From positions 699,009 through 763,008 of the forward strand of contig JACJVW010000001.1 in assembly GCA_020637435.1 (NCBI GenBank): DNA of 64,000 bases. The letters run 5' to 3'. Each line of letters opens with the position of its first letter. Positions within the stretch are counted from its first letter, which is position 1. The position numbers and the translations under genes are program-made. Below the pieces are notes generated by a model that saw only the letters and a program-made list of their open reading frames with translations, ran no database searches and was not told the origin of the DNA. Source of the stretch: Candidatus Woesearchaeota archaeon. Lineage in GTDB: Archaea; Nanobdellota; Nanobdellia; Woesearchaeales; JACJVW01. Below are positions 6,371 to 54,176 of this stretch, piece by piece.

Positions 6371-6371
6371 G

Positions 6372-6869
6372 ATGAAAGCGCAGATAAAGATGGGAGAGAC
6401 GGTCGCCATTATGATAGTCTTCTTTCTCCTCGTCGCATTCGGTCTTGGATTCTACGTGCAGGTGCAGGAGCACTACTTCGAGAAAGAGCAGGCAAAGATT
6501 CTGCAGCTTAAGGGCTTGCAGATCTCGCAGAAAGCCTCCTATCTTCCGGAACTGCAGTGCAGCGTGCAAAATATCCAGTACGATAATTGTTTTGACATAG
6601 ACAAAGCGGAGATTTTTTTCGAAGTGGTCAACGGCAGTGATGAGAAGTACGCGCACTACTACGATATTTTCGGGTCAAGCACCTTGTATCTGCAGGAAGT
6701 CTATCCCAACAGTGGAAAGACCTATATGATATACGATGCATCGCTTCCTAATGAAAGGGGAACAAACACCCTCACGAGTGTCGTTCCCGTCTCATTGTTC
6801 GACGGAAAACAGAATGTCTTCTCCATAGGTGTTCTGGTCATCAACCACACAGACAGGGATCTAGGATGA
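6372..6869 (+). CDS. Class III signal peptide protein, pilin-like
   Basis: N-terminus MKA|QIKMGETVAIMIVFFLLVAFGLGFYV. 1-nt spacer to the upstream gene. Confidence 0.7.
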   Translation: MKAQIKMGETVAIMIVFFLLVAFGLGFYVQVQEHYFEKEQAKILQLKGLQISQKASYLPELQCSVQNIQYDNCFDIDKAEIFFEVVNGSDEKYAHYYDIFGSSTLYLQEVYPNSGKTYMIYDASLPNERGTNTLTSVVPVSLFDGKQNVFSIGVLVINHTDRDLG

Positions 6870-7351
6870 GAAAAGCACAGATGGAAGTATTAGGCCTCAT
6901 GGTCGTGGTATTGCTGCTCAGTATAGCTGTACTCTTCGTCGTCACATTTGTATTTCTTGATGAAACTCGTGATCCATCTCAGCAGCACCAGGAATCACAG
7001 CTCTCGTCCAATCTGCTAAACGCAATGCTGCAGACAACAGCGATGGATTGTGGAAAGCAGCAGCTTAAATCTCTCTTCCGTGATTGTGCGTTGACCAACG
7101 AGATAAGGTGCGATAACGGAAAGCGTTCCTGCCAGTATCTAAATGAGACCGTATTCAATATTCTTGAGGGCATCCTCAATACCCCGCAGTACAGAAGGGC
7201 GTACTTCTTTAACGCGACCGGCATCCCGCAGACAAATATAGAAGGAGGTATCCAGTTCGGTAGGCCATGCCAGGGAGATCTTGATGCCAAACAATTCCCT
7301 ATCCAGGCGCAGCGAAAGACCGTCGAGATCCAGATAGAGCTCTGCGGGTAA
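6866..7351 (+). CDS. Class III signal peptide protein, pilin-like
   Basis: N-terminus MRKA|QMEVLGLMVVVLLLSIAVLFVV. ATGA overlap with the upstream gene. Confidence 0.7.
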   Translation: MRKAQMEVLGLMVVVLLLSIAVLFVVTFVFLDETRDPSQQHQESQLSSNLLNAMLQTTAMDCGKQQLKSLFRDCALTNEIRCDNGKRSCQYLNETVFNILEGILNTPQYRRAYFFNATGIPQTNIEGGIQFGRPCQGDLDAKQFPIQAQRKTVEIQIELCG

Positions 7352-7371
7352 AGAGCCACCTGCCCATTTCC

Positions 7372-7380
7372 TTTTATAAA
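7372..7380 (+). promoter_or_regulatory. TATA-box-like element for leaderless 7403 gene
   Basis: ttttataaa centred about 27 nt upstream of the ATG at 7403. No SD sequence in between. Confidence 0.45.
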
Positions 7381-7402
7381 CCAGTTTTCATTCTCTTCTC
7401 AT

Positions 7403-9124
7403 ATGCACCCAATATTTACCTTCCTGGGGGGTTCAACCCTCTATGGGCTCTACGATACTTTTGTTAATGACCGTGGCGGACTGGTACACCTCATAGAGCG
7501 CACAGAACGGGCTGACTTGATGGACAAAGTAGAGGCGGCGCGCGATATAGTTTACAATGGTGTTCAGCATCTTGACCATGCGCAGGAGATAGCAGATGTT
7601 GTGGGTTTCCTCAGCCAGTCCGGTCCTTACTTTATGCCCTACCTCCTTGCAGGCCTTGCCTCAATAGGAGCAGTAACAGGAGTGCGGCAGACGCAAAATC
7701 TTCTCAGGCAATACTCTTCATTCCAGGAGAACCGCCATCGAAGAGAGCACCAGGAGTCCTTGCCGACAGGTATGCCTGATAACCCAAGAACAGAACTGGT
7801 AAACTTGGTCGACCATCATCTGAAGAGTATTCGAAGCTGGAATCTCATTGAGTACGAAGGCACCAAAGAAGTGACCAAATCAAGATATCTTAGGGCGATT
7901 CGAAAAAAAGATGACGACCAGGCCCTTGCGTATGCAACCTTGCTATCCCGCAAGGAGTATTTCATCACTACAGCTGGGCGTTTGATGGGGGAAGATTTCA
8001 CTGCCTTTCTTCCGCGACTGGAACGCTTTGACCAGATTGACCCGGATGATATCAACATACATGGCTTTGACGAAAAAGTGGATAACCTTGCCTATGTTGC
8101 GGCGCTTGCTGAACGCTACATAGCTATCGCGCCTGAACAGGCAGAGCAAGTGCTCCCTATATATGATGATGCGCTAAAGCGACTCTATACACTTACCAGA
8201 TTGTTTACCACAAAAGACATGGGACAATTGGAGCTTCAGGGCGAAACCAACAACGCTGTCTACCGTCTTAAACAGCCCTTTGCCAGAAATCTGCTCCTTT
8301 TCAAGGAAGGCGAGTCCCTCGAACAACACCGGAAGGAAATGGATGCAACAGAACAAATAAGGTCATTGTTAAAAGGGCATACGCAGTGGAAAGTACCTCG
8401 CCCGATTGCCGTGTTCGAACCCGACCACCGTAATCTCTCAAAGCCGGTTTACGTCATGTCAGTGGCCCAGGGCGAAACACTCGACCACATGATGAATGAC
8501 AACCCGGCAACAGAAGCAATCAACAGGGTGCTACCCTTCCTGACCTATCTTGCATCACATCTTCCTCCTGCCTCAAACAAAGAACGACTTGAAGACAAAC
8601 TGTACGCACGGCTTGACAACAAAGACTTCATTCCTGATGATCAAAAGCGAGAACAACTGCTGCAGCACGCTGCAATATGGTCCCCCTCTCTACTGGAAGA
8701 TATCAATCAGTTCCCCTACATCGCCAACCTTGATGCGCAGCCAGAGAACTGGATAATTGGTGACCAGATAACCCGTATAGACCTGGAGCCAAAACCGGCA
8801 ACAAGCGCAATCTTCGATATCTGCAAACTCTTTGAATATCACCACTCAGGCCCATTTGAGGACAAGCTCCCCTACCTTCGCCAACACATGCATGCACTCG
8901 GACTAGAATTGCCTGATGAAGATCTATGTAGGGGCTATCTAAGCGCTACCGTGTACCTGGCAATATCAGTAGGTTCTTACCGCTCCTCCCCAAAAGTCAA
9001 AGAGAAGTGGCCGATGAGAAAGATTCTTTTACAGAATGCGTTGCGTGCAGCAGATGCTCTTGCATCTACACAAGCGTATGACCTCTTGCGCAAAGACCTA
9101 AGAGACATCTATGATGGATTATGA
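7403..9124 (+). CDS. Protein-kinase-like fold phosphotransferase (APH/ChoK/Kdo-kinase-like) with N-terminal hydrophobic region
   Basis: Kinase-like order of motifs: LLFKEG (Lys), EMDATEQI (Glu), hinge YVMSVAQGETL, catalytic-loop-like NLDAQPENWII, then ITRIDLEP (DFG-equivalent IDxE). Confidence 0.5.
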   Translation: MHPIFTFLGGSTLYGLYDTFVNDRGGLVHLIERTERADLMDKVEAARDIVYNGVQHLDHAQEIADVVGFLSQSGPYFMPYLLAGLASIGAVTGVRQTQNLLRQYSSFQENRHRREHQESLPTGMPDNPRTELVNLVDHHLKSIRSWNLIEYEGTKEVTKSRYLRAIRKKDDDQALAYATLLSRKEYFITTAGRLMGEDFTAFLPRLERFDQIDPDDINIHGFDEKVDNLAYVAALAERYIAIAPEQAEQVLPIYDDALKRLYTLTRLFTTKDMGQLELQGETNNAVYRLKQPFARNLLLFKEGESLEQHRKEMDATEQIRSLLKGHTQWKVPRPIAVFEPDHRNLSKPVYVMSVAQGETLDHMMNDNPATEAINRVLPFLTYLASHLPPASNKERLEDKLYARLDNKDFIPDDQKREQLLQHAAIWSPSLLEDINQFPYIANLDAQPENWIIGDQITRIDLEPKPATSAIFDICKLFEYHHSGPFEDKLPYLRQHMHALGLELPDEDLCRGYLSATVYLAISVGSYRSSPKVKEKWPMRKILLQNALRAADALASTQAYDLLRKDLRDIYDGL

Positions 9125-9978
9125 TGCAGCCCTGTCGTGGAACCAGCAAGGCTAAGAATATTCGTGATGATGCCGTGCACAAATAAATCCGCTCTGGATA
9201 TTTTTCCTTTCTCAACATCCGCCAAAAGTTCTTTTCCTCTGGCAACAAATTCAGAGAGTCGCTCAAAGCTATAGTTGTAATATAGGGAATAATACTGTTC
9301 AAGATACGCATGGACAGAAGAAAGAGCCTCTACACGTCCCGGTTGGCGGCTGAGTCGCTTGAGGTCATCACAGATATTCTCAAGAACCCATAGGATCGTG
9401 TAGAGGTAGTTCTTTCTGATAGGGGTCATCATGCTCTTGTTAAGGATCCGATGACAATAATTGGTGATCTTGTTGTTCGTTTCTTCATAGCTCTCGATGG
9501 TTGTGGGGTCAGCTCCATCAAGGAGGTCCTTAGCCATGCCGATAACGATGAGAAAATTTCTCCGTATCAATCCTCGAAGGTCAGGGTCTTCAGCAAGTAT
9601 CAAATCCTTGATGAGCAAAGTCGTCTTGCTCTGTTCAAGAATCTCATACCCCATAAGCATAGTGTTGATGGTCATTCGGATAGACTCCAGTTGTTCAGGG
9701 GAACTATACCGTACCGCAAGCTCATCATACCCATCCTTATGCAACGTAGCGATAATGCTTCGTGCCACATCGGCGGAAGTATTGCTGACATCCACAGCAA
9801 GCCGGGTCCGTTGCTGGCTTACCTCTTTGGCAGTGATGCACAGCCCTTGCGAAGAAGGCGTGACCTCCACCTCATCCCCCTTACTGATCCCACTTTCCTT
9901 GGCCCAAACTGCAGGCAGGCTTACTAACAGGGTTTTCCCGGCAAGCTGAATTACTTTCCTTCTCACAACTCGCTTCAC
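9109..9978 (-). CDS. AbrB/SpoVT-domain plus PhoU-like regulator (archaeal phosphate uptake regulator type)
   Basis: N-terminus RRKVIQLAGKTLLVSLPAVWAKESGISKGDEVEV is typical of a looped-hinge AbrB-type domain. The remainder is helical and PhoU-like. Confidence 0.65.
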   Translation of the reverse strand: MKRVVRRKVIQLAGKTLLVSLPAVWAKESGISKGDEVEVTPSSQGLCITAKEVSQQRTRLAVDVSNTSADVARSIIATLHKDGYDELAVRYSSPEQLESIRMTINTMLMGYEILEQSKTTLLIKDLILAEDPDLRGLIRRNFLIVIGMAKDLLDGADPTTIESYEETNNKITNYCHRILNKSMMTPIRKNYLYTILWVLENICDDLKRLSRQPGRVEALSSVHAYLEQYYSLYYNYSFERLSEFVARGKELLADVEKGKISRADLFVHGIITNILSLAGSTTGLHHNPS

Positions 9979-10099
9979 ATCTTAGAGGTATATAAAATTA
10001 TTCAATATATATGACTATATATCATAATATATATTATATTCCATAAATATATACCTTTCTTTGGGCTCTTTACGTATAACACGATTTGAGGTGATTTAC

Positions 10100-10588
10100 A
10101 TGAAGAAGGATCTGTTGATTGTTGCTCATCTGCGAAAGAACGGAAGAGAGACACTGACGAACATGAGTAAGAAGACCAATATTCCTATATCGACCATATA
10201 CGAACGACTGAAGCACAACGACGTCATAACTAGGCATACCGCATTGCTGGATTTTTCCAAGCTGGGCTACAAGGCGAGAGCCAATGTCCTCATCAAGCTT
10301 TCAGCGTCGGCAAGAGACGGATTTATAGAGGCGATGAACTGCTCCAGCATGGTGAACACTGTGTACCGGGTGAACAATGGATTTGATTTTATGGTCGAGG
10401 TGCTCGGTAGGGACCATATCGCACTTGAACAGTACGTAGCTGATTTGGAGACGCGCTTCCTACCTGAAAAGCTTCAGGTGCACTACATCCTGGGCACTCT
10501 TGCCCATGAACGGTTTCTCAGTGACCCCTCAATCATATACGCTGACGCGACAGTGCAAGAACGCAAAAATCATGCAGTTATGGGTTAA
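10100..10588 (+). CDS. Lrp/AsnC-family transcriptional regulator
   Basis: MKKDLLIVAHLRKNGRETLTNMSKKTNIPISTIYERLKH (HTH) plus a C-terminal RAM-like domain. GAGGTGAT SD sits 4 nt before the ATG at 10100. The track ORF starts earlier, at 10061. Confidence 0.75.
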   Translation: MKKDLLIVAHLRKNGRETLTNMSKKTNIPISTIYERLKHNDVITRHTALLDFSKLGYKARANVLIKLSASARDGFIEAMNCSSMVNTVYRVNNGFDFMVEVLGRDHIALEQYVADLETRFLPEKLQVHYILGTLAHERFLSDPSIIYADATVQERKNHAVMG

Positions 10589-10637
10589 CTTTAAATACTA
10601 CAGATACAGATAAACCACTATAAATTGAGGTGATATT

Positions 10638-10907
10638 GTGAATACTAAAGCACAAGGCTTATCGATGAATGTCATCATCGTCGCTGCACTGGCACTATTG
10701 GTTCTCGTCATTGTCTCTGTAATTTTCATGTCAAGATCAAGTACCTTTGTCATTGAGTCCAGAGGTTGTGAGAGTAGCGGCGGCACATGCGTAGACGATC
10801 CAAGCGAATGTCCTGCAGGGACTAAAGCGACAGGTATATCATCCCTGACGTGCACTGACAGCAGTGGCGAGCCGAATGGCAGGATCTGTTGCATAGCTGG
10901 AGAATAA
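10638..10907 (+). CDS. Mini pilin-like protein with C-terminal 6-Cys knob
   Basis: GTG start after GAGGTGAT. MNTKA|QGLSMNVIIVAALALLVLVIVSVIF. Cys pattern C-x6-C-x6-C-x13-C-x11-CC. Confidence 0.7.
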   Translation: MNTKAQGLSMNVIIVAALALLVLVIVSVIFMSRSSTFVIESRGCESSGGTCVDDPSECPAGTKATGISSLTCTDSSGEPNGRICCIAGE

Positions 10908-10909
10908 AC

Positions 10910-11164
10910 ATGATTTTTAATCGAAAAGCTCAGGGATTATCTATGAACACCATTATCATAGCTGCCCTGGCTATTCTTGTTCTTATTGTTCTTGCAGTCA
11001 TCTTCGGCAACAAAGGTCGTGACTTCGCCAACAACACGAGAAGCTGCGAAAATCTTGGCGGCGAGTGCAAATCAGAATGCGATGCTGACCTTGAGCGCAA
11101 GCACATCGGCAAGACCAACTGCGGCGACGTCAGTTATTGCTGCATCCGCATCTACGACCAATAA
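10910..11164 (+). CDS. Mini pilin-like protein with C-terminal 6-Cys knob (paralog of 10638)
   Basis: ATG at 10910 gives MIFNRKA|QGLSMNTIIIAALAILVLIVLAVIF. Cys pattern C-x6-C-x3-C-x13-C-x5-CC. Shares the CE(S/N)xGGxC motif with its neighbour. Confidence 0.7.
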   Translation: MIFNRKAQGLSMNTIIIAALAILVLIVLAVIFGNKGRDFANNTRSCENLGGECKSECDADLERKHIGKTNCGDVSYCCIRIYDQ

Positions 11165-11288
11165 CACACAGCAATCTAATCTTTCTTTTTCATACTTAAG
11201 AGAGTACTCAATGTAACTCCTATTGCCCACATACAAAACCACAGTATCTTGGACAATCTTTATATAGCCGTCTCCCTGTAAACACCGT

Positions 11289-11414
11289 ATGGCAGACGAG
11301 GACACAGGCGAATTTAGCCATCTGGTCAAGTTCATCATCTTGGCCGTCATGATAATAATCATACTGGTGATTTTCGGCACCAAATTCATGTCCTGGGTCC
11401 AGTCGTCATTCTAA
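11289..11414 (+). CDS. 41-aa single-TM mini-ORF (candidate, below ORF-track cutoff)
   Basis: MADEDTGEFSHLVKFIILAVMIIIILVIFGTKFMSWVQSSF. Stop codon is 1 nt before the next start. Same strand as the whole locus. Confidence 0.35.
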   Translation: MADEDTGEFSHLVKFIILAVMIIIILVIFGTKFMSWVQSSF

Positions 11415-11415
11415 G

Positions 11416-12207
11416 ATGAAAGCGCAGGTATTTGGTTCAACAGTCAATATGATACTTCTCCTTGCGGCAGCGGTAGTCCTCATTGGATTCGTCGGCATGT
11501 TTGTCGCAAACACCGTAAAAGGAGAGTCCATCGAAGCCTGCAGGCTAAGCTTCCTTGCCGCATCCTATGATTTCACAGGCGAAGTCCTGGATTTCGATTG
11601 CCCGATAAGGGAAGTCAGCATAAGCAAGCGCGACATCTACAAAGGTGAAGACCTTAAAGAAAATACGCTCAACAGGATCCTCGCTGAAGAGCTTCGCATC
11701 TGCAACTACATGACCGCGGAAGCAAAACACTATCCCTTTGATTCAGAATTGTTCTCGCAAAACACAGCTTGCATCATCTGTGCCGACATTTCTTTTGACG
11801 AATCAATAAGCGAAGATGGACGGTACACCATCTATTCCCACGATGTAAACGAATATCTCAAATCCACCATTCTTCCCAAAGGCACGCAGACCTATGCTGA
11901 ATATCTCGAAGCCAACAGGGACATAGATTTTGACAAAGGCATAACATACATAGAGTCCATCAAAAAAGACACCGTACGCGGAACTCGCTTTGTCCCTAAA
12001 TACACGAACCTCCCCTACGTCTCCACGGTAGATAGCAATCAACGATACTTTGTGGTCTACCAATACGTTGTACCCTCAGACACAGAGTCGGCTTGGGATA
12101 CGGTAGTAGGTTGGGTTACTGACCGCTCAACCGGCCCAAACTCAGCCATCTTCCTCATCGATGAAGAGAACTTACAGTACATGAGTTGTGATATGATTGC
12201 GAACTAA
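11416..12207 (+). CDS. Class III signal peptide protein, pilin-like (263 aa)
   Basis: MKA|QVFGSTVNMILLLAAAVVLIGFVGMFV. Conserved Cys/ILAEEL pattern shared with the next gene. Confidence 0.7.
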   Translation: MKAQVFGSTVNMILLLAAAVVLIGFVGMFVANTVKGESIEACRLSFLAASYDFTGEVLDFDCPIREVSISKRDIYKGEDLKENTLNRILAEELRICNYMTAEAKHYPFDSELFSQNTACIICADISFDESISEDGRYTIYSHDVNEYLKSTILPKGTQTYAEYLEANRDIDFDKGITYIESIKKDTVRGTRFVPKYTNLPYVSTVDSNQRYFVVYQYVVPSDTESAWDTVVGWVTDRSTGPNSAIFLIDEENLQYMSCDMIAN

Positions 12208-13060
12208 AGCCCAGGCCATGGAGAAGATTGTATACGCCACCGTGGCGCTCATGGCAGTCACCATGCTCTCCTACTACATCTACGGCACCATGATTAGTCT
12301 AAGCGAGCGCCATGACGATGAAATATGCAAAGAATCAGTATTCACCAACTACCTTTTGAGTCAAAAAGGCATTGAATCCGACGAAATCCTCTGTCCTACA
12401 AAATACACCACTATCAAAGGCAACGAAAAGAAAGCCCTGGCAGAAGAACTGGAACGCTGTTGGTGGATGCATCACGAAGGCAAGCTCGAACTTTTCTCTG
12501 AAGAAAAAATATACTGCTCCGTCTGCTCCGTTGTTCGCTTTGAAGGCGACGGTACGCTTGAGGGATTCGGAGACTACATGATGACCGCAGAGCGCAAAGA
12601 CGGTTCTACCTACCTCTCTTACCTGGCATCAGTCGAGACAGAACGCGCAGCAGACCTCATCCAGGATGACAACGCATTCCAACAGCTCGATATGGCCTCA
12701 AATTCGATTGACCGTTCCAAACCCCATTCTATAATTTTCGTCTATGCCAAGGGTGAGAACTGGGTCGGTGAGCTCTTTGATACGATAGGCAGAACGACCA
12801 CAACACTGACCGTGGGCACAGTTAGCTCGCTTGGTAGTGGTGCCGTGTTCTTCCTCGTGACCCCTGCAGGAGCCGTATGGGGTGTAAGCGCGGTTGCTGC
12901 TGCACTTTCTGTTGGCACAATTGCAGGTTTTGCTGCTTTATTTGCAGAAGAGGACGCGCACACATCATTTATTATACTAAAAGAACATCAACAAGATGAA
13001 TTAAGAGACTTAGGCTGCCAGGTATTCCCGGCAGTCCAGAAGGATATCCAAAATGAATAG
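12197..13060 (+). CDS. Class III signal peptide protein, pilin-like, with two C-terminal TM helices (paralog of 11416)
   Basis: A TTG start gives (M)RTKA|QAMEKIVYATVALMAVTML. The in-frame KAQ motif favours TTG over the ATG at 12218. Contains ALAEELERCWWM and YCSVCSVVRFEG. Confidence 0.6.
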   Translation: MRTKAQAMEKIVYATVALMAVTMLSYYIYGTMISLSERHDDEICKESVFTNYLLSQKGIESDEILCPTKYTTIKGNEKKALAEELERCWWMHHEGKLELFSEEKIYCSVCSVVRFEGDGTLEGFGDYMMTAERKDGSTYLSYLASVETERAADLIQDDNAFQQLDMASNSIDRSKPHSIIFVYAKGENWVGELFDTIGRTTTTLTVGTVSSLGSGAVFFLVTPAGAVWGVSAVAAALSVGTIAGFAALFAEEDAHTSFIILKEHQQDELRDLGCQVFPAVQKDIQNE

Positions 13061-13181
13061 CAACGCGATGGTACTCTCCAAACTGCTAGCAGCAGGAATT
13101 GCTTTGCTCCTGCTCGTCGTCCTGCTTATCATTCTGAGTGACGCAGGCTCATCATTGTTTCAGGTGGAGTTCCCATGGTAA
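13053..13181 (+). CDS. 42-aa single-TM mini-ORF (candidate)
   Basis: MNSNAMVLSKLLAAGIALLLLVVLLIILSDAGSSLFQVEFPW. Overlaps the upstream stop by 8 nt and the downstream start by 7 nt. Confidence 0.35.
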   Translation: MNSNAMVLSKLLAAGIALLLLVVLLIILSDAGSSLFQVEFPW

Positions 13182-13681
13182 AAGGTGAGATGACCACTTC
13201 CACTCTGGTGGGAGCCGCAATAGTCGTGATTCTCTTCCTCGTCCTGACCATCTTCCCCGGTAAAATTCAGGATGCCTGGACAGGCATGAAAAGCATCTTC
13301 GGAGAAAATGACCCTGATGTACTCTATGACAAAGGCGTTGACAGTTATCTCGATGGCGAATACACCGCTGCAAAAAAGAGTCTAACCTCCTTCATCAACA
13401 CATTTCCCGGCCATCCAAACGTGACAGCTGCAAAAATACACTTAGCTATGGTCCACGCAGCCCAAGGCAACAAGAAATCCTCCTCCGATCTGATTGAAGA
13501 AATACTTAAGACTGACAACCTTCCAGGAGACGTCGCATCACCCCTTTACTCCCAAGAACGAGAAATCTCATCATCATCAACCTCTTACGACTGGGGTTGC
13601 ATCAACTATGGTTCAGCCGGCTGCATATACGGCATAAAGGCGAACACCGACCCCTGCATATGTCGCATGGGCATTGAATAA
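13175..13681 (+). CDS. Pilin-like N-terminus fused to TPR/YbgF-like repeat region
   Basis: MVKG|EMTTSTLVGAAIVVILFLVLTIF. Then YDKGVDSYLDGEYTAAKKSLTSFINTFPGHPNVTAAKIHLAMVHAAQG, which is TPR-like. Confidence 0.6.
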   Translation: MVKGEMTTSTLVGAAIVVILFLVLTIFPGKIQDAWTGMKSIFGENDPDVLYDKGVDSYLDGEYTAAKKSLTSFINTFPGHPNVTAAKIHLAMVHAAQGNKKSSSDLIEEILKTDNLPGDVASPLYSQEREISSSSTSYDWGCINYGSAGCIYGIKANTDPCICRMGIE

Positions 13682-13713
13682 CCCCAGTAAATTTTATTAA
13701 CTCACATCTCAAA

Positions 13714-13983
13714 ATGATACTTATGAACAAAAAAGCAATGACGCAGGAAGCGGTCATCAAAATGGCACTTGGTGTACTCGTATTGCTGGTGCTCATTTTC
13801 CTGTTCACCGACCAGGCTCGAAATTTCGGAGGCATTGTAGGCAATACTTGCGATTGCACTAACCACGAAAAGGCTCTGGAAAACGCTTGCGAAGAAGGAG
13901 AAACACTAACCTACGGCAAACTCAAAGAAGATTGTGAAGGTACAACCAAGGGGGCGAGGGTAAGATGCTGCGTCAAAAAATAG
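13714..13983 (+). CDS. Mini pilin-like protein with C-terminal 6-Cys knob (third member)
   Basis: MILMNKKA|MTQEAVIKMALGVLVLLVLIFLF. Cys pattern C-x-C-x10-C-x14-C-x10-CC. Confidence 0.65.
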   Translation: MILMNKKAMTQEAVIKMALGVLVLLVLIFLFTDQARNFGGIVGNTCDCTNHEKALENACEEGETLTYGKLKEDCEGTTKGARVRCCVKK

Positions 13984-14402
13984 GCATGACTACAAGCACA
14001 CTTATCTCCATGGCTCTTGGTATAGTGCTCTTCATCGTCCTTCTCTTCATGATACAAAACGGTTCGCTCATGGCGTTCTGGGACAGTTCGACGGGTATCG
14101 TCGATTCAGCACAGGTCCAGGCCTGTATGAAAGACCAGGAGCTCAATAACAAGAATCAGGAAGACTGTGACAACGACGGCATCTACGATGTCTGCGACTT
14201 CTGTCTTGGTGCCGACAACCGTCTCGACGGGGATAATGATGGTACTCCAGACCATTGTGATGAAGACCCCGGCAATTCCAAAAAGAAGAAATGCAATGGC
14301 GAACTTATAGAATTGGGAAACTACAAATATTGCGAAGCTCATGAAATCTCAGGTTGCGAAGAGAAAGCAGACTACTTCAGAGAATTAGCCGGAGAGAAGT
14401 AA
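13965..14402 (+). CDS. Pilin-like N-terminus fused to TSP3-like Ca-binding loops
   Basis: MLRQKIG|MTTSTLISMALGIVLFIVLLFMI shares MTTSTL with 13175. Also DCDNDGIYDVCDFCLGADNRLDGDNDGTPDHCDEDP. Alternative start at the ATG at 13986. Confidence 0.6.
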   Translation: MLRQKIGMTTSTLISMALGIVLFIVLLFMIQNGSLMAFWDSSTGIVDSAQVQACMKDQELNNKNQEDCDNDGIYDVCDFCLGADNRLDGDNDGTPDHCDEDPGNSKKKKCNGELIELGNYKYCEAHEISGCEEKADYFRELAGEK

Positions 14403-14403
14403 A

Positions 14404-15444
14404 ATGAACAAGCGGGGCGAATCTTCAACAATGGTCCCCGAACAGGTAGTCAATGCGGCTATCGCAGCTGTACTCGTCCTTGTGGTTCTTTCGGTCATAA
14501 TCGCCTTCGTCTGGAACCTCTTTGATGTCCGAGACACTTCTGAAAAAAACTTTGACCGACTCATAGAAAAAATAAATCAACTTTCTGCCGCAAATGGGGA
14601 ATACACCGTCTATCCTTCCGTACCTTTCACAATCCAGGAAGATTATTCCGTCATCGCCTTCAATCCCGGACAGCCTACCGTGGAGTTCAACGCACCATGG
14701 TACAAGATTTGGACCAGCACTGATGAAGTGGAACGTCCAGAAGAGTGCAGGCTACGGGTCTCAGCATGCATCTGCCTCTACAAAGACACAGATGTAGTCA
14801 AATGTCACACGCTCTCCCAGACCACCTATTTCGGAGCAACAACCCTTGATGTTGGGCTTATCACTACAGTAGCCCTACCTTTCAGCAGTGATGATTCTAT
14901 GATGCTTGCCCTTGAGCAGGATGGGTATTCAAGCAGGCTTCAGGATGAGTATGCGCAAATCTTCTTTCCCTCAGCTGTAGATTGGGGATTAACGAAGAAA
15001 GATGTGGATTGGAACGCACAGCTGCTCTATATGGACATGGTTAATTCTGGCGAGCACAAATACATCATGATAACACCTGCCAAAAACACCACTGAGCTGA
15101 AGAATAAACGAAAAGAGACTATGGATTACGAAAAGGCCTACCGTTTAGAACAGGAAATATATGATATTGCGGCAGGGGCGCAAAATGAGGAGAACATGCT
15201 CCTTCTCTACTCAAAATGCTATGAACTCTTCGGCGTCCACCCTGAAGTGTACCCTACAGAAATCTGTGACAATCTGGTCTGCCAGGACCTGCAAAGTGAT
15301 GAGAAAGGGAACTGTGAGATTGAGAATCACTGCATCTGTCTTCCCTTTTATGGAGAAGAGTACTGCGATAATAGCGCAAACAGATTCTGCTACGACACTG
15401 GCTGCTCAGACATTGAGATATCAGGCGCAGACTGCGGATATTAA
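14404..15444 (+). CDS. Pilin-like N-terminus protein with Cys-rich C-terminal tail (346 aa)
   Basis: MNKRG|ESSTMVPEQVVNAAIAAVLVLVVLSVIIAF. C-terminal CDNLVCQDL...CEIENHCICLPFYGEEYCDNSANRFCYDTGC. Confidence 0.65.
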   Translation: MNKRGESSTMVPEQVVNAAIAAVLVLVVLSVIIAFVWNLFDVRDTSEKNFDRLIEKINQLSAANGEYTVYPSVPFTIQEDYSVIAFNPGQPTVEFNAPWYKIWTSTDEVERPEECRLRVSACICLYKDTDVVKCHTLSQTTYFGATTLDVGLITTVALPFSSDDSMMLALEQDGYSSRLQDEYAQIFFPSAVDWGLTKKDVDWNAQLLYMDMVNSGEHKYIMITPAKNTTELKNKRKETMDYEKAYRLEQEIYDIAAGAQNEENMLLLYSKCYELFGVHPEVYPTEICDNLVCQDLQSDEKGNCEIENHCICLPFYGEEYCDNSANRFCYDTGCSDIEISGADCGY

Positions 15445-15547
15445 AATGAGGCCAACTTCTGGAAACTTAGACCTTAAGTTCCTGAATCTTCCGGACATCT
15501 TAACCTACATAATCCTAAAAGCGGGTTTTTCCTTCATTACCCCCTGA

Positions 15548-15558
15548 ATATTTATAAA
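15548..15558 (+). promoter_or_regulatory. Internal TATA-like box for the 15582 transcription unit
   Basis: atatttataaa centred about 28 nt before the ATG at 15582. Lies in the only sizeable spacer (137 nt) of the locus. A T-run (gggttttt) sits just upstream. Confidence 0.4.
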
Positions 15559-15581
15559 CTCAAACACCCTAAAAACCCGTA

Positions 15582-16553
15582 ATGCTGCGCAGTAAAAAGG
15601 GTGACTTGCAGCAGGAGATAATCCTGCATGCGATAGACTTCGTCATATTGGTAGCTTTCTTGCTTATCTGCCTGCAGATTGTTGATGGAATCGAAGAGAA
15701 TAGGGTCTTCGACAAGAATTTTCTCGCCAAAGACCTTGCCCTTACTGCAAGCGTGGTTGCGGCCGCGCCCGAAGATATCAGCACCATCTACGACCCGGGT
15801 GCTTTCGACTCACGGCTTTCCTATTTCGACTACGTCTTTGAAGACCACAAGATGACCGTCATCACCAAGCAGGGTGTCAAAGTCTACGCTCCGTACTCCT
15901 ATCCTGAGCAAGCGGAAGCGAAGATACCTAATGTGGTCAAACCGGAATCCCTCTTTTTCGAAAAGATCGGCAACGCCTTCTATATCTCACTCACACCGCA
16001 CGACCTGCCAGAGCGAAAAGACCTCTGCGATGGAGTGCAAAAAGTGCAAAAGGCGCCTCTCCATATTACTTCAGGCACCGGCCTCACCGACCTAAGCGCC
16101 TATCCTGATGCAGCGGAAGTGGAATTCCTGGCGCTGGATGTTCAGGACACGCTCATACTCGCGGGACTTCAGATACAGCAGTATCTTGATGAAGGAACGC
16201 TCTTCATAAGCTTGCAACCGGGAATAAGCAATGATGAAATACAACCAATTACAATTCACTTCACAGCAAACACGCGCGGTATCGCATGCGGTATCAGGAA
16301 TATGTTCCAAAATGATCTTGCATTGCAGTCATGGTTCTCCAACCAATTAATGCGGGTAACTATGCATGAAATCCCTTCAAACATTGATGAGGCAGATATT
16401 CGAGCAACAGAAGCAAAAGGCGTAGTCGTCATTGAGCTGGGCAATGTCGCCGCATATGATAATCTATTTTCAACTACAACCAAAGACAATACACAACCGT
16501 ACAGAAAAACGGTTCAGGACATAGCAGATGGTATCAAGGAAGGTATCGAATAA
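15582..16553 (+). CDS. Pilin-like N-terminus protein (323 aa)
   Basis: MLRSKKG|DLQQEIILHAIDFVILVAFLLICLQIV. Confidence 0.6.
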   Translation: MLRSKKGDLQQEIILHAIDFVILVAFLLICLQIVDGIEENRVFDKNFLAKDLALTASVVAAAPEDISTIYDPGAFDSRLSYFDYVFEDHKMTVITKQGVKVYAPYSYPEQAEAKIPNVVKPESLFFEKIGNAFYISLTPHDLPERKDLCDGVQKVQKAPLHITSGTGLTDLSAYPDAAEVEFLALDVQDTLILAGLQIQQYLDEGTLFISLQPGISNDEIQPITIHFTANTRGIACGIRNMFQNDLALQSWFSNQLMRVTMHEIPSNIDEADIRATEAKGVVVIELGNVAAYDNLFSTTTKDNTQPYRKTVQDIADGIKEGIE

Positions 16554-17067
16554 AGGTATATCGACCCTAAGCATGGTCGGATACTTCTGGAAAATCTCTC
16601 TAATAACGGTAGTTTTCTTTGCGTTCTACTTCCTTGTGAAATCTATGGTAGTATCAGACTTTGACACCAGCACAGTGGAAGCAGAACTCTTCTTTTACCA
16701 GACAGTCTATGCAAAAAAGGGCATATCCTACTACGACAGTGTTATCGACAAAGTCTACCCCGGCAAGATTGACCTGGCAAGGGTCAAGGACAAATCGACC
16801 ATTGAAGCAGAGCTTCTACAGACCTTTGACTATGGTGGTGCGGAACCTCGGTTAGCTGCAAAATACATATTGGAAGACGCTTCGGGAAAAGAGCTTGCCA
16901 CCTGGTACTACGACGAAGACATGTATGATAATCTTATTGCCGTGGCATTTGGCACTGGCGCGGGAGCTGCAATCGAAGTCACGCACTCCTTATATGTTAT
17001 AATTATTGATGAGGGAAAAAAACGTTCAGGGGTGCTCAAAGCCTCCATCGTTAAGCAAAATTCATGA
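16528..17067 (+). CDS. Pilin-like N-terminus protein (179 aa; start uncertain)
   Basis: ..SNKG|ISTLSMVGYFWKISLITVVFFAFYFLV. Alternative ATG at 16573. Confidence 0.55.
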   Translation: MVSRKVSNKGISTLSMVGYFWKISLITVVFFAFYFLVKSMVVSDFDTSTVEAELFFYQTVYAKKGISYYDSVIDKVYPGKIDLARVKDKSTIEAELLQTFDYGGAEPRLAAKYILEDASGKELATWYYDEDMYDNLIAVAFGTGAGAAIEVTHSLYVIIIDEGKKRSGVLKASIVKQNS

Positions 17068-17588
17068 AACGGGCAAATGTAACAGGGGCATTGGTGCTTA
17101 TCTTTAGTGTCATCGCTCTCATTCTCATGTTCCTTGTCTTCTACATCATTGCGGGCCAGGAAGACCAGAAAGTCTTCTCAGACAAAAATGAAGCTGAGTC
17201 TCTTGACGCGGACATCATGCTGCGAAACATCCTGGATACGCCCTCCACTAAAGGCACTGTACGTGACCTCATTGAGTACGACCTTGTGCAGATGACCTGG
17301 AAGGACACCTTTAGAGACAGCAGCTATGAAGATGAACTGGAGACCATCATGGAAAAGCTCTTTCCTCTGATGAGACACCAAATAAAAGTAGCAGATGAAA
17401 CATGTGAGCGAAGAAGTATATTTCGGGTCTATGTTACGCAGGGAAGCCCTGATACTTATACCGATGATGAGGGCTGGACAACCGCATGCCCCTCTCTTGG
17501 AAGGTTGCAGGAAGTAAGAAAAGAAATCACACTCTCAACAGGGCGCACCGTAATGGTAGGTCTTGAATTCATGTACAGGGAAATATGA
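17064..17588 (+). CDS. Pilin-like N-terminus protein (174 aa)
   Basis: MKRA|NVTGALVLIFSVIALILMFLVFYII. ATGA overlap with the upstream gene. Confidence 0.6.
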   Translation: MKRANVTGALVLIFSVIALILMFLVFYIIAGQEDQKVFSDKNEAESLDADIMLRNILDTPSTKGTVRDLIEYDLVQMTWKDTFRDSSYEDELETIMEKLFPLMRHQIKVADETCERRSIFRVYVTQGSPDTYTDDEGWTTACPSLGRLQEVRKEITLSTGRTVMVGLEFMYREI

Positions 17589-18694
17589 GAAAAAAAGGAA
17601 TGGTGTTTTACGTTGGCATTGTCCTCGTTGCTCTAGTCCTACTCACGACAACTATGATATCTCTCAAAGGACTTCAGGATGAACTGCCTGACTATCCGAT
17701 AGGTGAACAGCAGTTCTCCATCCTTAATGCATATGAATCCATCTCAAAAGACGGGGAAGACCTTGCATGGATGGCAAAAAAAGCCGCAGACCGTGCTATG
17801 CTTGACCTTGCAAAGAACGGGGGGCACAATGTCATCAAAGAATCAGAAAGCGCAAGTGACAACCCCTGCGGAACATCCGGCAATTTTGAGCTGTGGAACC
17901 TTGGCACGACCGAGTGCTTCCCTGATCCGCAAAGCGCGTTTGAGTCCTACTTCAACGACCACATGCTCGACATGCAGCTGCGTTGGGGTCAGGAGCCTGT
18001 CTCCTACTCACTCACTCTCTCTGATGAAGTCATTTATGGCTCTGCCGGAAGAAAAGTCCAGTACACAAAACCGGTGCGGGCAATTCCCGTGCCGATAACC
18101 GGCACCTCACAGATAGTCTGTCCAGCCATGCAGCTCAGCGCAGTAACCTATGCCACAGCAAATGCCATCAATGGCGATGTGCATGGGTGCACACAGGCAA
18201 AAAGAGATGCAAAGGAATGTACCTTCCTCCTTCCTTCCGAGTTTGCATCACTCTGTGCTGTTGAAGACCCCCGAGTGGAAATTGCCAGACCAGGGGGCAA
18301 TGCCATGGTCCCAGAACTTGCGCAGTTCCTTGTGGATATTGCTGCAAAATGGCAGGCGATAGAATGCGCAGGCGTTGATAACTGTCAGGCAAGACTCCAT
18401 GTCTCAAGCATAGGCACAGGGCGTCACAGCGCTGGAAGTATGCACAATCTGGGCAGGGCAATAGATGTCAGCCGCTGTATCGACAAAGACGGCAAGACCC
18501 ACTATGCATCAAGCTACAATACCTATGACACAAGCACCGTATACGGCCGCTGCTACAAGATGGTCTATGACGAAGCACGGGATCGAGGCTTCAACTTCAT
18601 CGGCCAGTGGAGCTGCCTGGGCTTCACAGCCGAGACCTGCAGCGAGCAAAAACTCTACCACTCCGACCATATGCATATAGATTACAGAACATGA
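17585..18694 (+). CDS. Pilin-like N-terminus fused to LAS-family (peptidase M15/VanY-like) zinc peptidase domain
   Basis: MRKKG|MVFYVGIVLVALVLLTTTMI. C-terminal GRHSAGSMHNLGRAIDVS matches SxHxxGxAxD. Followed by HSDHMHIDY (second His ligand motif). Confidence 0.7.
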   Translation: MRKKGMVFYVGIVLVALVLLTTTMISLKGLQDELPDYPIGEQQFSILNAYESISKDGEDLAWMAKKAADRAMLDLAKNGGHNVIKESESASDNPCGTSGNFELWNLGTTECFPDPQSAFESYFNDHMLDMQLRWGQEPVSYSLTLSDEVIYGSAGRKVQYTKPVRAIPVPITGTSQIVCPAMQLSAVTYATANAINGDVHGCTQAKRDAKECTFLLPSEFASLCAVEDPRVEIARPGGNAMVPELAQFLVDIAAKWQAIECAGVDNCQARLHVSSIGTGRHSAGSMHNLGRAIDVSRCIDKDGKTHYASSYNTYDTSTVYGRCYKMVYDEARDRGFNFIGQWSCLGFTAETCSEQKLYHSDHMHIDYRT

Positions 18695-20271
18695 GACTCG
18701 AACTGACACTTGTAGGACTAATAGCAATGATTGTCCTAGTCAGAATATTCATTCCTGTAGACACCGTAACTGGTATGGCATCTTCTGATGAAGGAGAGAT
18801 TGACGAAGGGATCAAGCAAGTGCTCATGGAATACTTCATCGACTACGATTCACTTCAGGCACAGCTCGAGCAACGACAGGAACAGATTGACCTTGTTCAG
18901 CAGGTAGGTGCAAGGCAGGGTCTGCCGGATACCTTCTATCCTGCACATCTTTTCATTATCTCAAACGGGCTCTACGAACAGACAACCTGTTCACAGGTCG
19001 CGGAACTCTTCTGGATTGAAGAGTGCCAGGGCCTGCCAAAAGATGAATGTGAGGCCGAAATGCATTGCACAGCCTGCGAAGAAGGTGGATGCGGATGCAG
19101 CCTTTTCAAGAATTATCCGCTAACCTATCATGCAGTATCCTGCAATTTTGGTATGGGGCAAGTCTCGTTTAAAGACGCGTACAATCTTGGCTATAGCGGA
19201 CCTGTTGAAGGTTTGGAAGACACCGAGACAAACCTTCGCATGTATTTCCTCACTATGAAACGGCTTAACGAAGATGCAAGAACCCAGACCATCATTGACC
19301 GCATCATTGCTCATGACATAGGTCTTGAACGCCTAACGCAAATAAAAGAGACCTATGGAGAAACCTTCGAGGAATACTACATCGCACTGCCTTTTCCAAA
19401 AAGATACGCGATTCTTGCGGGAAAAGTGCTGACCATCGCAAGCGTTCTGCAAGAACCCACCAACGATGACCTTGAAGAACACATCGAGAATGCGCTCTCA
19501 CGCTTGAGCATACCTCCTGTTGAGCAAATCTCCTCAGTAAGGATGAGTTCTCTGCCACGCTTCCGCATAGATGAGGACTACGCGCTAAGCCAAATGTCCC
19601 AGATGAAAGAAGACGCAAAAAATCTCATCAGCACCTGCAAAGGCGAAGAGCGCGTAGAGCAGTGCGTGCAGGACAATCTCCCAAAAGACTGGCAGACCGG
19701 AAGCACCTGCGCAACCGTTTTTGACAAAGCGATAGCGTACATCGACCAATGCGCATCCGCCATCAATCCACCCTGCAATTGTTTCTATGACTCTATCAAA
19801 CAGGACGAAACCATTACATTCACAAACACTGACGGCGGCATTCGTGTCGCTGTTGGAAGAGAAGCTTCCACCCTCGCGGGAGTACGGCTTGAGGAACCCT
19901 CCATTGTTTTCAACGAAGATACCATGGACTGGCTAAGTCTCCCCATCATCGGTGATGACCAGAAATTCATTGGCAATCTGGGAAGCGGAAAGATTGGCTT
20001 TGTTGACAAAGGAACCTCCGGGTGTAAATATCCTGATACAAAAATAGTCAGATTCTGTGCAGACACAGGACAAACCATCACTCATGTAGCAGGTAGCGAG
20101 ATACGCGAAGAGCAACTCATCTATCGTTTTGCGCTTGATTTTAGGGATGTTCAGGAGGGGCCTTACACCTTTGGTGAGACCGTTCCCACTGATGGTCATG
20201 CATTAGTCATAACCAAAATTGTTACACAGCAGGACCAACTCAATGCAGTAACAGGGGTGGCTGGACAATGA
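18691..20271 (+). CDS. N-terminally anchored Cys-rich extracellular protein (526 aa from ATG 18691)
   Basis: The ATG at 18691 overlaps the upstream stop (ATGA). MRLELTLVGLIAMIVLVRIFIPV. Cys cluster ECQGLPKDECEAEMHCTACEEGGCGC. No family assigned. Confidence 0.6.
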   Translation: MRLELTLVGLIAMIVLVRIFIPVDTVTGMASSDEGEIDEGIKQVLMEYFIDYDSLQAQLEQRQEQIDLVQQVGARQGLPDTFYPAHLFIISNGLYEQTTCSQVAELFWIEECQGLPKDECEAEMHCTACEEGGCGCSLFKNYPLTYHAVSCNFGMGQVSFKDAYNLGYSGPVEGLEDTETNLRMYFLTMKRLNEDARTQTIIDRIIAHDIGLERLTQIKETYGETFEEYYIALPFPKRYAILAGKVLTIASVLQEPTNDDLEEHIENALSRLSIPPVEQISSVRMSSLPRFRIDEDYALSQMSQMKEDAKNLISTCKGEERVEQCVQDNLPKDWQTGSTCATVFDKAIAYIDQCASAINPPCNCFYDSIKQDETITFTNTDGGIRVAVGREASTLAGVRLEEPSIVFNEDTMDWLSLPIIGDDQKFIGNLGSGKIGFVDKGTSGCKYPDTKIVRFCADTGQTITHVAGSEIREEQLIYRFALDFRDVQEGPYTFGETVPTDGHALVITKIVTQQDQLNAVTGVAGQ

Positions 20272-21176
20272 AACTGCTCACAACCCTCCTAGCCGTTCTA
20301 CTTATCCTGCCCTCAGTAGCAGCTATCTGTGAAGACATGCAGTACGCGCAGTATCCTCTTTCGCCTGAGCTCTACAGGTTCTATCTCTACGACCATCGGG
20401 CAATTGACGTAACACTTCCAGAATTTCAATCGGAGAATCCAACAATCACTCTGGGACAGCAAATCTGTCTGCCAAAAAAGATTTCAAACAAACTTTCCTT
20501 AAGCGAAGGTGAGACCATCATCAACCTTTGGCAGTTCTATGGTGCGCCCCGCGGTTACTCTCTAAGCGAGACCGCTCTAAAAATTCTAGACAAGCAAGAC
20601 CCAACAACCGCTGCACTCTACCGTTCATCTCCCGGGCGCTTTGACCCTTACTCCTTTTCAGTTCAGCATCCGCTAAATACCGGCACTCTCGATTGGGAAG
20701 GAGCACCACTACCGCCACAACAAAACGAAAACGTTTTGCAGGTCATCGATACCAAAATTTTACCCAGTACGCTAATCGATGAACTCATCCTTGATGACCT
20801 TCAAGGCATCCAAAGGGAATACTCGGTAAGCGAAGAATTCATCGAGCTCATCACCAATCTTGCTGTACAAAGGACAAACAGTGGTGTCGACATTCGTGTA
20901 ATTGTCCTTGAGACGTCCTTCCTTGATGAAAGCTCCATCTCCTACAATGCCATTGCAGCGTCCGCATTCGAGAGAAAATTCAAGGACCGTGAACGTAAGC
21001 AGGCAGTAGTTGTCCTTGAGCGCGACAGAGCAATTTCTGTAGTCTATAATCCTGACCTCTTCGATGAAGAAATCATCAACAGGGAGGTTGCCTACGCAAC
21101 AGACCTTCTAGAACTCGGCGATAGCAGTCTCAACATATTAAAGAGCGTAACACAGGGGATAGTCGATGCGTCGTGA
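20268..21176 (+). CDS. Secreted protein with classical signal peptide
   Basis: MKLLTTLLAVLLILPSVAAICED. ATGA overlap with the upstream gene. Confidence 0.6.
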   Translation: MKLLTTLLAVLLILPSVAAICEDMQYAQYPLSPELYRFYLYDHRAIDVTLPEFQSENPTITLGQQICLPKKISNKLSLSEGETIINLWQFYGAPRGYSLSETALKILDKQDPTTAALYRSSPGRFDPYSFSVQHPLNTGTLDWEGAPLPPQQNENVLQVIDTKILPSTLIDELILDDLQGIQREYSVSEEFIELITNLAVQRTNSGVDIRVIVLETSFLDESSISYNAIAASAFERKFKDRERKQAVVVLERDRAISVVYNPDLFDEEIINREVAYATDLLELGDSSLNILKSVTQGIVDAS

Positions 21177-31487: not shown

Positions 31488-31492
31488 TACTC

Positions 31493-32680: not shown

Positions 32681-32681
32681 A

Positions 32682-39144: not shown

Positions 39145-39151
39145 TTTTTTT
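39145..39151 (+). terminator. T7 tract directly after stop codon
   Basis: tagTTTTTTTct between convergent genes. Confidence 0.4.
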
Positions 39152-39185
39152 CTACGTTCCCCTATCTTTCTTCCAGAGTATCTGT

Positions 39186-40438: not shown

Positions 40439-40606
40439 GAAGAAGAGGGGTGAAAAACGGGTTATAAATATATAGGTCAAAGCTTGCGAAAAGCCTCATT
40501 GCTAATACAGGTCCTGTTTGAAACGTCCTAGATAGGCAGATGTTATGGTATGGGGCGAGATACTGGTACACAATACTTTTATAGGGGTAGATGCTAACTG
40601 ACCTGC

Positions 40607-54000: not shown

Positions 54001-54176
54001 ATTCAGAGGGTCCCTCTGCTCCTGCTGGTGGTGCGCTTGGCTGGTTCAGCCGAGGCATGATGGTTGCTCCCTTTGAGGAGGCTGCTTTCGCTCTGGAGCC
54101 AGGTGAAGTAAGTGCACCGGTCAAGACAGAATTCGGTTACCACATCATCTACGTCACCGGCAAAGATCAGCGTTAG
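51096..54176 (+). CDS. aglB: Archaeal oligosaccharyltransferase AglB (STT3) fused to a C-terminal PpiC/parvulin PPIase domain
   Basis: Multi-TM N-terminal half. SWWDFGHW (WWDYG motif) at about 52842-52856. The last ~98 aa match parvulin: ASHILL...[59 protein letters not shown]. Confidence 0.85.

Follow-up and report, generated by a model that had tools for sequence, protein, structure and literature searches.

What would an archaeon that, to our knowledge, has no murein do with a zinc-peptidase motif of the kind found in enzymes that cut bacterial cell walls? The question is raised by a stretch of 64,000 nucleotides from a Candidatus Woesearchaeota archaeon (assembly GCA_020637435.1, contig JACJVW010000001.1 of 782 kb, positions 699,009 to 763,008), referred to below as the window. 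One of its genes, here called the target gene, encodes a two-domain protein (Table 1) that is identical to the NCBI entry 'hypothetical protein H6504_03545 [Candidatus Woesearchaeota archaeon]'. We propose, with a probability of roughly 0.6, that this protein is a surface- or pilus-displayed zinc peptidase aimed at bacterial murein, borne on a prepilin-like carrier at the end of a pilus-like operon.

The C-terminal region of the protein holds the decapeptide SMHNLGRAID (aa 285-294, nt 18437-18466), which a sequence-only reading of the window had matched to the SxHxxGxAxD pattern of VanY-type peptidases. The match is sound: the pattern has a single occurrence in the six-frame translation of the 64-kb window, and its key residues are kept in relatives. 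An exhaustive HMMER scan with the target protein over 1.84 billion representatives found 59 proteins. Nine of these also have the C-terminal domain (eight at full length and one as the C-terminal domain alone), whilst in the other ~50 the match is limited to residues 1 to ~150. Loss of the motif residues in homologues, named in the sequence-only reading as an outcome that would speak against it, did not occur: across 10 homologues with identities of 24-37%, H281, S285, H287, G290, D294, H359 and H362 do not vary. A292 and H364 are kept in at least nine of the 10; H364 is present in nine and is replaced by Asp in the homologue P0025. C298, D300, C323 and C344 are nearly invariant. The named homologues are from Woesearchaeota and Nanoarchaeota. 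Word-indexed homology searches with the whole protein, the C-terminal domain profile or the N-terminal module profile returned nothing beyond the self-match and P0025, and a metagenome scan with the C-terminal domain alignment (A3) found no relative.

The same reading had pointed to HSDHMHIDY (aa 359-367, nt 18659-18685) as the source of the second His ligand. That sequence is present and its H359 and H362 are invariant, but it takes the form HxxHxH and not the ExxH of VanY; the consensus of the second motif in the target family is (S/T)-H-x-(N/D)-H-(I/M)-H.

The protein was modelled with AlphaFold2 (AF2) on a 44-row alignment. The model has a predicted local distance difference test score (pLDDT) of 87.9 overall and >90 across most of the C-terminal domain; single-sequence AF2 reached only 48. 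In a Foldseek comparison with the PDB, the top 38 matches were all Hedgehog N-domains (probability 0.95-1.0, template-modelling (TM) score 0.44-0.61, ~160 columns). The first 36 had probabilities of 0.99-1.0 and TM scores of 0.48-0.61, and the 38th (7rhq) had values of 0.95 and 0.44. MepA (1u10) came after them, with a probability of 0.97 and an E value of 0.024, and beyond these two groups no PDB match had a probability >0.1. The sequence-only reading had set a structure and profile comparison as its test, and what came back was the LAS fold alone, with no different fold. Judged by the model, the C-terminal domain has the fold of the LAS (lysostaphin / D-Ala-D-Ala carboxypeptidase / Sonic hedgehog) metallopeptidases, also called the Hedgehog/DD-peptidase fold (Pfam clan Peptidase_MD). 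With a profile of the domain, the best PDB sequences were the Shh and Ihh N-domains, below threshold (E 0.012-0.1) and centred on the zinc motif, and hhalign aligned the domain to SHH-N with an E value of 2e-4 and a probability of 44%; both alignments span part of the domain. A single-sequence PDB search with the target gave no match.

The LAS fold is defined by H-x6-D and, as second motif, H-x-H, and the zinc ligands of Shh are H141, D148 and H183 (PMC6027127). In the target, the first zinc motif, H-x(3-6)-D, is found as H287-NLGRAI-D294 and the second, H-x-H or alternatively E-x-x-H, as H362-M-H364. From the alignment to Shh, H287, D294 and H364 would bind the zinc, H359 and H362 are putative catalytic residues, and H281 is the presumed counterpart of H135 of Shh. 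The Hedgehog glutamate that lies four residues before H-x-H (E177 in mouse) has no equivalent: the target has Y358 at this position, the family mostly Ser, and the invariant H359 adjoins it.

The N-terminal module is common to ~50 representative proteins and 80 metagenome loci. Its layout is KK[G/A/S]-x-x-F, a hydrophobic helix, IGExQ, two long helices and a beta region with CGxYxGYxLW...CxP; G40, Q43, G79, G80, C95, G96, W104, C111 and P113 hardly vary. The module has no match in Pfam, NCBIfam or the PDB. The N-terminus of the target reads MRKKGMVFYVGIVLVALVLL, in agreement with the sequence-only reading. Archaeal class III signal sites are set by positions -2 (positive), -1 and +1 (PMC3387779), and MRKKG↓MVFYVGIVLVALVLL (the arrow marks the predicted cleavage position here and below) has a positive residue at -2, a small residue at -1 and a hydrophobic helix of ~20 aa. 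The signature KK[G/A/S]xxF with a hydrophobic run recurs in 54 of the 59 family members, and an archaellin-family protein of the same genome begins MSKRG↓EMGISTMLIMIAF. Together with the array of prepilin-like genes described below, these features bear out the pilin-like N-terminus that had been read from the sequence.

The cargo that the module bears in other DPANN proteins, more than 100 in all, was surveyed by running Pfam on the C-terminal domains of 60 representatives and of 53 further complete proteins from metagenome loci. Among the representatives we found M23 in 10, SLT (lytic transglycosylase) in five, Peptidase_M15 and CHAP in three each, Amidase_3, VanY, C39_2 and NlpC/P60 in two each, and Amidase_2, 3D, phage lysozyme and Lysozyme_like in one each. 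VanY (21 proteins) and Peptidase_M15 (19) were the most frequent in the metagenome set, followed by M15_3 and M15_2 (four each), SLT (two) and Amidase_2, Amidase_3, M23 and C39_2 (one each). Across sister loci the slot behind the carrier holds at least 12 hydrolase families. Because so many of them share one carrier module, the slot that the target domain occupies can be described as a swappable peptidoglycan-hydrolase cassette: the module is a dedicated carrier for peptidoglycan hydrolases, and the LAS domain of the target is one more cassette, invisible to Pfam. Such diversity in a single slot argues for target-driven diversification rather than housekeeping.

Among known LAS proteins, the Hedgehog N-domain and the bacterial Hh/DD-peptidase (M15A-like) group give the best structural and the best sequence-profile match to the target domain. 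H-x6-D and H-x-H are common to both (PMC6027127), and the target pattern GxHSxxSxHxxGxAxDI(S/T)xxD+D could be aligned. However, the identity is only 14-19%, E177 is missing, and neither the target nor the 10 family members show a PF01085 (HH_signal) match at E<=1; the target also differs in its archaeal host and its prepilin-like N-terminus. MepA, a murein DD-endopeptidase (MEROPS M74), is likewise an LAS fold match, but the TM score is low (0.24 normalised to the query model, 0.35 to MepA), there is no Pfam M74 match, and MepA has a Sec signal and a housekeeping function in the periplasm. The second motif of MepA is of the HxxHxH type, with His rather than Glu around the zinc.

VanY and the M15B-C enzymes have in common with the target the exact SxHxxGxAxD motif, and in sister loci the slot behind this carrier is filled by genuine VanY and M15 domains. 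Those VanY-type cassettes carry ExWHFE (E-x-W-H), though, where the target has HxxHxH, and the target falls below every Pfam threshold. Its best scores were 14.5-16.4 bits for PF06904 (Extensin-like_C) and 12.9-15.7 bits for PF13539 (Peptidase_M15_4), with cut-offs of ~25; these two families are members of one peptidase clan. Weak PF13539 matches occur in five of the 10 family members, PF02557 does not match the target, and searches of Pfam, NCBIfam, PHROGs and PDB sequences gave no significant match for it. Membership of the in-slot VanY-type or M15_3-type cassettes was rejected at hhalign probabilities of 24% and 13%. Kinship with phage M15 endolysins was also rejected: the best LAS-like match in BFVD had an E value of 0.14, and PHROGs gave none. 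A BFVD match with a lower E value (3.8e-03) had a root-mean-square deviation of 21.5 over 344 columns and is not a domain match, and Foldseek found nothing convincing in BFVD for the target model. Ply500 (2vo9) reached E 0.42 by sequence and the phage T5 L-Ala-D-Glu peptidase (2mxz) E 2.8 by structure. Since no Pfam threshold is reached, the second motif is HxxHxH and not ExxH, and hhalign probabilities to the in-slot cassettes are this low, we class the C-terminal domain as a new, small and divergent LAS family that belongs neither to VanY/M15B nor to the Hedgehog family. The label 'M15/VanY-type' given in the sequence-only reading is not borne out by this comparison, in which the nearest structures are Hedgehog N-domains and MepA rather than VanY, VanX or a phage endolysin.

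The neighbouring cassettes bear on the likely substrate. SLT enzymes and MurNAc-L-Ala amidases need N-acetylmuramic acid (MurNAc), which pseudomurein does not contain. As the same carrier bears SLT and MurNAc-L-Ala amidase cassettes, the substrate is more plausibly murein than pseudomurein; and as no murein is known from the archaeon itself, the wall of an attached bacterium is the most likely substrate. Three roles had initially been put forward for the peptidase. Action on the wall of a bacterial partner or prey is the one best supported, by the SLT and amidase cassettes, with pseudomurein and a non-wall substrate less so.

In the mechanism we propose, the class III signal MRKKG↓MVF... and the hydrophobic helix after it would start the carrier module of a secreted, two-domain protein of a Woesearchaeote, a DPANN archaeon. 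The helix would either anchor the protein in the membrane or insert it as a minor or tip subunit of a pilus-like fibre, itself built from the ~15 prepilin-like products of the same locus. A flexible linker would join the carrier to a disulfide-rich LAS domain in which one Zn2+ would be held by H287 and D294 (H-x6-D) and by H364 (H-x-H), with H281, H359 and H362 placed around the catalytic water. The domain would hydrolyse a peptide or amide bond in a stem peptide or cross-link of bacterial peptidoglycan, in the wall of an attached bacterium, whether host, prey or nutrient source, and would probably work jointly with the co-translated Cys-rich, SLT-like protein encoded downstream. The many conserved cysteines and the secreted neighbours support an extracellular location.

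In Nanoarchaeota sensu GTDB, peptidoglycan hydrolases are a prominent feature (Strock et al. 2025, PMC12352652), and the combination of GH23 lytic transglycosylases and pore-forming toxins seen in Woesearchaeota has been taken as a sign that they prey on bacteria (Vigneron et al. 2022, PMC9723730). Our case resembles both in concerning murein-type hydrolases of murein-less archaea, enriched in Nanoarchaeota/Woesearchaeota and interpreted as antibacterial or predatory. Those surveys were Pfam- or CAZy-based, and Strock et al. required a catalytic and a binding domain and sought Sec/Tat signals (PMC12352652), whereas the target is Pfam-invisible, has no binding domain and rides on a prepilin-like carrier within a pilin-like operon. 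The words 'pilin' and 'pili' occur in neither paper, and in the literature we found no earlier description of pilin-borne hydrolases in DPANN.

The gene immediately downstream had been suggested as a partner, and this suggestion was strengthened. The target gene shares 4-bp ATGA overlaps with both of its neighbours, at 17585 and 18691, which indicates an operon with translational coupling. Orthologues of the downstream product are encoded directly downstream of the carrier gene in the loci L001 (10573-12213), L002 (1608-3218) and L003 (11089-12573). The C-terminal Cys-rich region of the partner is found in this position in at least 10 loci, and in L019 (7986-9725) and L069 (7127-10123) it is fused into the carrier protein itself. 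The fusion in two loci supports a functional partnership, alongside the conserved synteny. The N-terminal half of the partner is SLT-like and the C-terminal domain is conserved. As a profile search of the PDB with the partner gave no match, the SLT assignment rests on sub-threshold Pfam matches in the L001 and L002 proteins (E 7.6e-4 and 2.6e-3) and on motifs: 'VES...GLTQI...AYNMG' in L001 and L002, and 'QES...GGIMQ...AYNRG' in L003. The product of the last operon gene has no family match in Pfam, NCBIfam or PHROGs.

At least 15 genes with prepilin-like N-termini occupy positions 4764-18694, in three co-directional blocks (4764-7351, 10638-13681 and 13714-18694). Of the six genes upstream of the target in its own block, four passed a class-III-like screen: 13714, 14404 and 17064 in the scan, and 13965 on reading its leader, KIG↓MTTSTLISMALGIVLF. 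The leaders of 15582 (KKG↓D, followed by a helix that contains charged residues) and 16528 (NKG↓ISTLSM, weaker) are similar and did not pass. Homologues of the 16528-17067 product occur in 37 loci; in those that also contain the carrier gene, their relative position is always the same. The window, L001, L002 and L003 share the order of the locus. We counted prepilin-like genes in 33 non-redundant metagenome loci that extend at least 5 kb upstream of the carrier gene. In 31 of them at least four co-directional genes of this kind lie there, and the array that the carrier gene closes comprises 8-14 of them; counted over all 33, 216 of 331 ORFs upstream are flagged as prepilin-like, as against 2 of 147 downstream. 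The gene set of 10638..13681 recurs in L003 and in metagenome loci, and L003 also repeats the head of the locus, where the gene for a TSP3 protein of 1545 aa precedes genes of 169, 355, 168 and 190 aa.

Several products of the locus deserve separate mention. The protein that heads it, encoded at 4-4767 and at least 1587 aa long, is likely to be an adhesin. It contains Ig-like domains and dozens of calcium-binding repeats of the TSP3 type, which are rich in Asp; a transmembrane segment lies at the C-terminal end, and the tail is rich in Pro and Lys. The proteins of 10638-10907, 10889-11164 and 13714-13983 are prepilin-like, of ~90 aa, with Cys-rich C-termini, and are candidate major pilins; one of the three has a weak 'defensin-like' Pfam match (PF25052, E 0.0014). 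The 15582-16553 product (L001 counterpart 7485-8387) is prepilin-like with a weakly Amidase_3-like C-terminus (E 0.14; 'VVIELGNV...IADGIKEGI') from which the usual zinc ligands are apparently missing, and may represent a degenerate MurNAc-L-Ala amidase fold. The operon, GTPase and helicase of L002, a Woesearchaeota metagenome-assembled genome, have nearly identical counterparts in L001 (CAYYOI010000002.1), which is labelled 'uncultured Methanosarcinales archaeon', and the partner proteins of the two are 75% identical; the taxonomic label or the contig binning of L001 is probably wrong.

Table 1. Features of the target gene and its locus (positions in the window)
Feature	Position	Strand	Basis
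Target gene, two-domain protein, 369 aa	17585..18694	+	open reading frame (ORF), ATG start
Putative class III (prepilin-type) leader MRKKG, predicted cleavage after G5	17585..17599	+	conserved KK[G/A/S]; cleavage deduced
Hydrophobic N-terminal helix, aa 6 to ~33, MVFYVGIVLVALVLLTTTMISL	17600..17683	+	helix 3-33 in AF2 model
Conserved carrier module, aa 1 to ~160, IGExQ motif, Cys pair C95/C111	17585..18064	+	homologue alignments
Low-confidence linker, ~aa 161-185	18065..18139	+	pLDDT <50 at 165-173, low block mean 161-180
C-terminal Cys-rich LAS (Hedgehog/DD-peptidase fold) domain, ~aa 186-369	18140..18691	+	Foldseek, profile-vs-PDB, weak Pfam
Motif H281-S-A-G-S-M-H287-N-L-G-R-A-I-D294	18425..18466	+	invariant residues; aligns with Shh
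Motif H359-S-D-H362-M-H364 (HxxHxH)	18659..18676	+	conservation in homologue alignment
Downstream partner, secreted Cys-rich protein, 526 aa	18691..20271	+	orthologues at same position in L001, L002, L003
Last operon gene, 302-aa protein with Sec-type signal peptide	20268..21176	+	overlapping start; orthologues in L001, L002
Giant TSP3-repeat surface protein, cut by window edge	4-4767	+	Pfam TSP3_bac
Four prepilin-like genes	4764-5297, 5294-6370, 6372-6869, 6866-7351	+	translations
Two small (~90 aa) candidate major pilins, KAQ↓GLSMNxIIxAALA	10638-10907, 10889-11164	+	translations
Further prepilin-like genes	11416-12207, 12197-13060, 13175-13681	+	translations
Six upstream co-directional genes	13714-13983, 13965-14402, 14404-15444, 15582-16553, 16528-17067, 17064-17588	+	translations

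A number of observations weigh against a murein peptidase displayed on a pilus. Neither the catalytic Glu of Hedgehog (E177) nor that of VanY/VanX (ExxH) has a counterpart, and a His-based mechanism must be assumed. Pfam finds no peptidoglycan-binding domain (LysM, SH3 or PG_binding) in the target, and the C-terminal domain family is small, with ~10 representatives in 1.84 billion. In the partner protein of the window, Ser stands at the catalytic Glu position and the motifs are degenerate ('IISN', 'GMGQ', 'AHDIG'); from these residues, its SLT-like half may be inactive. All cultivated DPANN have archaeal hosts (PMC11291902). On the side of the fibre, there is no pilin among the Foldseek matches of the globular part of the carrier, no pilin family of Pfam or NCBIfam matches any prepilin-like protein of the window, and the 64 kb encode no pilus ATPase, platform protein or prepilin peptidase. 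The lack of a pilin family or fold and of assembly machinery in the window would suit a protein with the same enzyme domain and the same murein substrate that is not a pilus subunit, and whose N-terminus is instead a signal-anchor that stays uncleaved, or a class III signal that serves export only, as in the Sulfolobus bindosome; the peptidase would then be tethered to the archaeal membrane and act at the cell-cell contact zone. The helix of the carrier module is broken at aa 34-40 in the AF2 model, unlike the one long alpha-1 helix of pilins, and non-pilin proteins such as the sugar-binding proteins of Sulfolobus are known to use class III signals (PMC3387779). Yet a plain anchor would have no need of the small residue strictly conserved after KK, and the gene is fixed at the end of a long prepilin-like array, ATGA-coupled to its neighbours. 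We regard a membrane-tethered, non-pilus enzyme as unlikely, if worth keeping in view.

The substrate could also be something other than murein, either pseudomurein or a protein. It might be a methanogen host's wall, a protein of the S-layer or the extracellular matrix, or subunits of the apparatus that need maturation, a role resembling that proposed for the Hedgehog N-domain in the extracellular matrix. Such a substrate would fit with closest structures that are Hedgehog N-domains and not murein enzymes, with Pfam murein-peptidase scores that are all below threshold, with the absence of the usual catalytic Glu, and with the archaeal hosts of cultivated DPANN (PMC11291902). It fits poorly with the SLT, Amidase_2, Amidase_3, VanY, M23 and CHAP domains in the same carrier slot and with the match to MepA, a genuine murein endopeptidase, at a probability of 0.97; archaeal peptidoglycan hydrolases are, moreover, largely absent from pseudomurein-making lineages (Strock et al., PMC12352652). 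On balance, a non-murein substrate seems improbable. We see even less reason to favour a housekeeping 'space-maker', an enzyme that locally opens the organism's own wall for fibre assembly, despite the conserved position of the gene inside a pilus-like operon. Bacterial trans-envelope machines do carry dedicated lytic transglycosylases or peptidases. However, no murein or pseudomurein synthesis genes were found in the window, our literature searches found no report of either synthesis in DPANN, and the range of hydrolases in one slot is not what a fixed housekeeping function would lead one to expect; this role appears very improbable. That the LAS domain is catalytically dead, serving as a binding or adhesin module for peptidoglycan-like ligands, is hardly credible. 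The Hedgehog protein of Drosophila is an example of an LAS domain that has lost catalysis (PMC6027127), and the SLT-like domain of the partner lacks its catalytic Glu in this genome, but the zinc-ligand and second-shell His residues are invariant at 24-37% identity, save for H364 in one homologue, the opposite of what is seen in pseudo-enzymes.

For the displayed murein peptidase that we favour, there are parallels in the Sulfolobus bindosome proteins and in modular bacterial minor pilins, where a globular domain sits on a prepilin-type N-terminus, probably within a pilus-like assembly (PMC3387779). The target differs from these in its cargo, a family of wall-degrading enzymes, and in the extra conserved carrier domain of ~120 aa. 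The array described here is distinct from the type IV pilus loci that Hamm et al. 2024 described in DPANN, which encode CpaF, TadC and coiled-coil proteins.

Other genes of the window include Endo_dU, Arch_flagellin, STT3/AglB and a DSHCT Ski2-like helicase, which, like the source names of the matches, support an archaeal origin. A 1026-aa protein (51096-54176) combines an STT3/AglB oligosaccharyltransferase with a C-terminal PPIC-type peptidyl-prolyl isomerase, an unusual fusion. The archaellin-family (PF01917) protein is encoded at 35474-36322 on the minus strand, adjoining NFACT and sugar-nucleotide genes, and no archaellum motor genes lie nearby. Dense clusters of UDP-sugar synthesis and glycosyltransferase genes occupy 30153-34400, 36839-40480 and 54294-63404. 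Their UDP-sugar genes include phosphoglucosamine mutase-like, GlmU-like, GlmS-like and UDP-glucose dehydrogenase genes, with no mur-type genes, and the clusters are consistent with heavy glycosylation of surface proteins.

Murein hydrolases in DPANN and LAS enzymes as such were already known. What appears to be new is a divergent, Hedgehog-like LAS family restricted to DPANN, and a prepilin-like carrier with swappable hydrolase cassettes, encoded by the terminal gene of a conserved pilin-like operon. The family adds an archaeal branch to the Hedgehog/DD-peptidase fold. As the target domain is invisible to Pfam, at least one family escapes Pfam-based censuses of such hydrolases in archaea. A bolder reading, which we offer only tentatively and consider possible but doubtful, takes the whole locus for a DPANN-specific organelle for attachment to bacteria and breaching of their walls, with the giant TSP3 adhesin, the ~15 prepilin-like proteins, the cassette carrier and the Cys-rich SLT-like partner as its parts.

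If this bolder reading is correct, a terminal pilin-like subunit would carry an enzyme to the bacterial wall, and cassettes (LAS, VanY, M23, SLT, CHAP and amidases) would be swapped in step with the wall chemotype of the bacterial host. These would be the first pilus-delivered wall hydrolases that act across domains, and many Woesearchaeales and Pacearchaeales would live on bacteria rather than on archaea. DPANN make up a large share of archaeal diversity, and the locus gives a testable handle on the hosts and the mode of interaction of Woesearchaeota: it predicts bacterial partners, names a surface apparatus and may allow the chemistry of the host wall to be read from the type of cassette.

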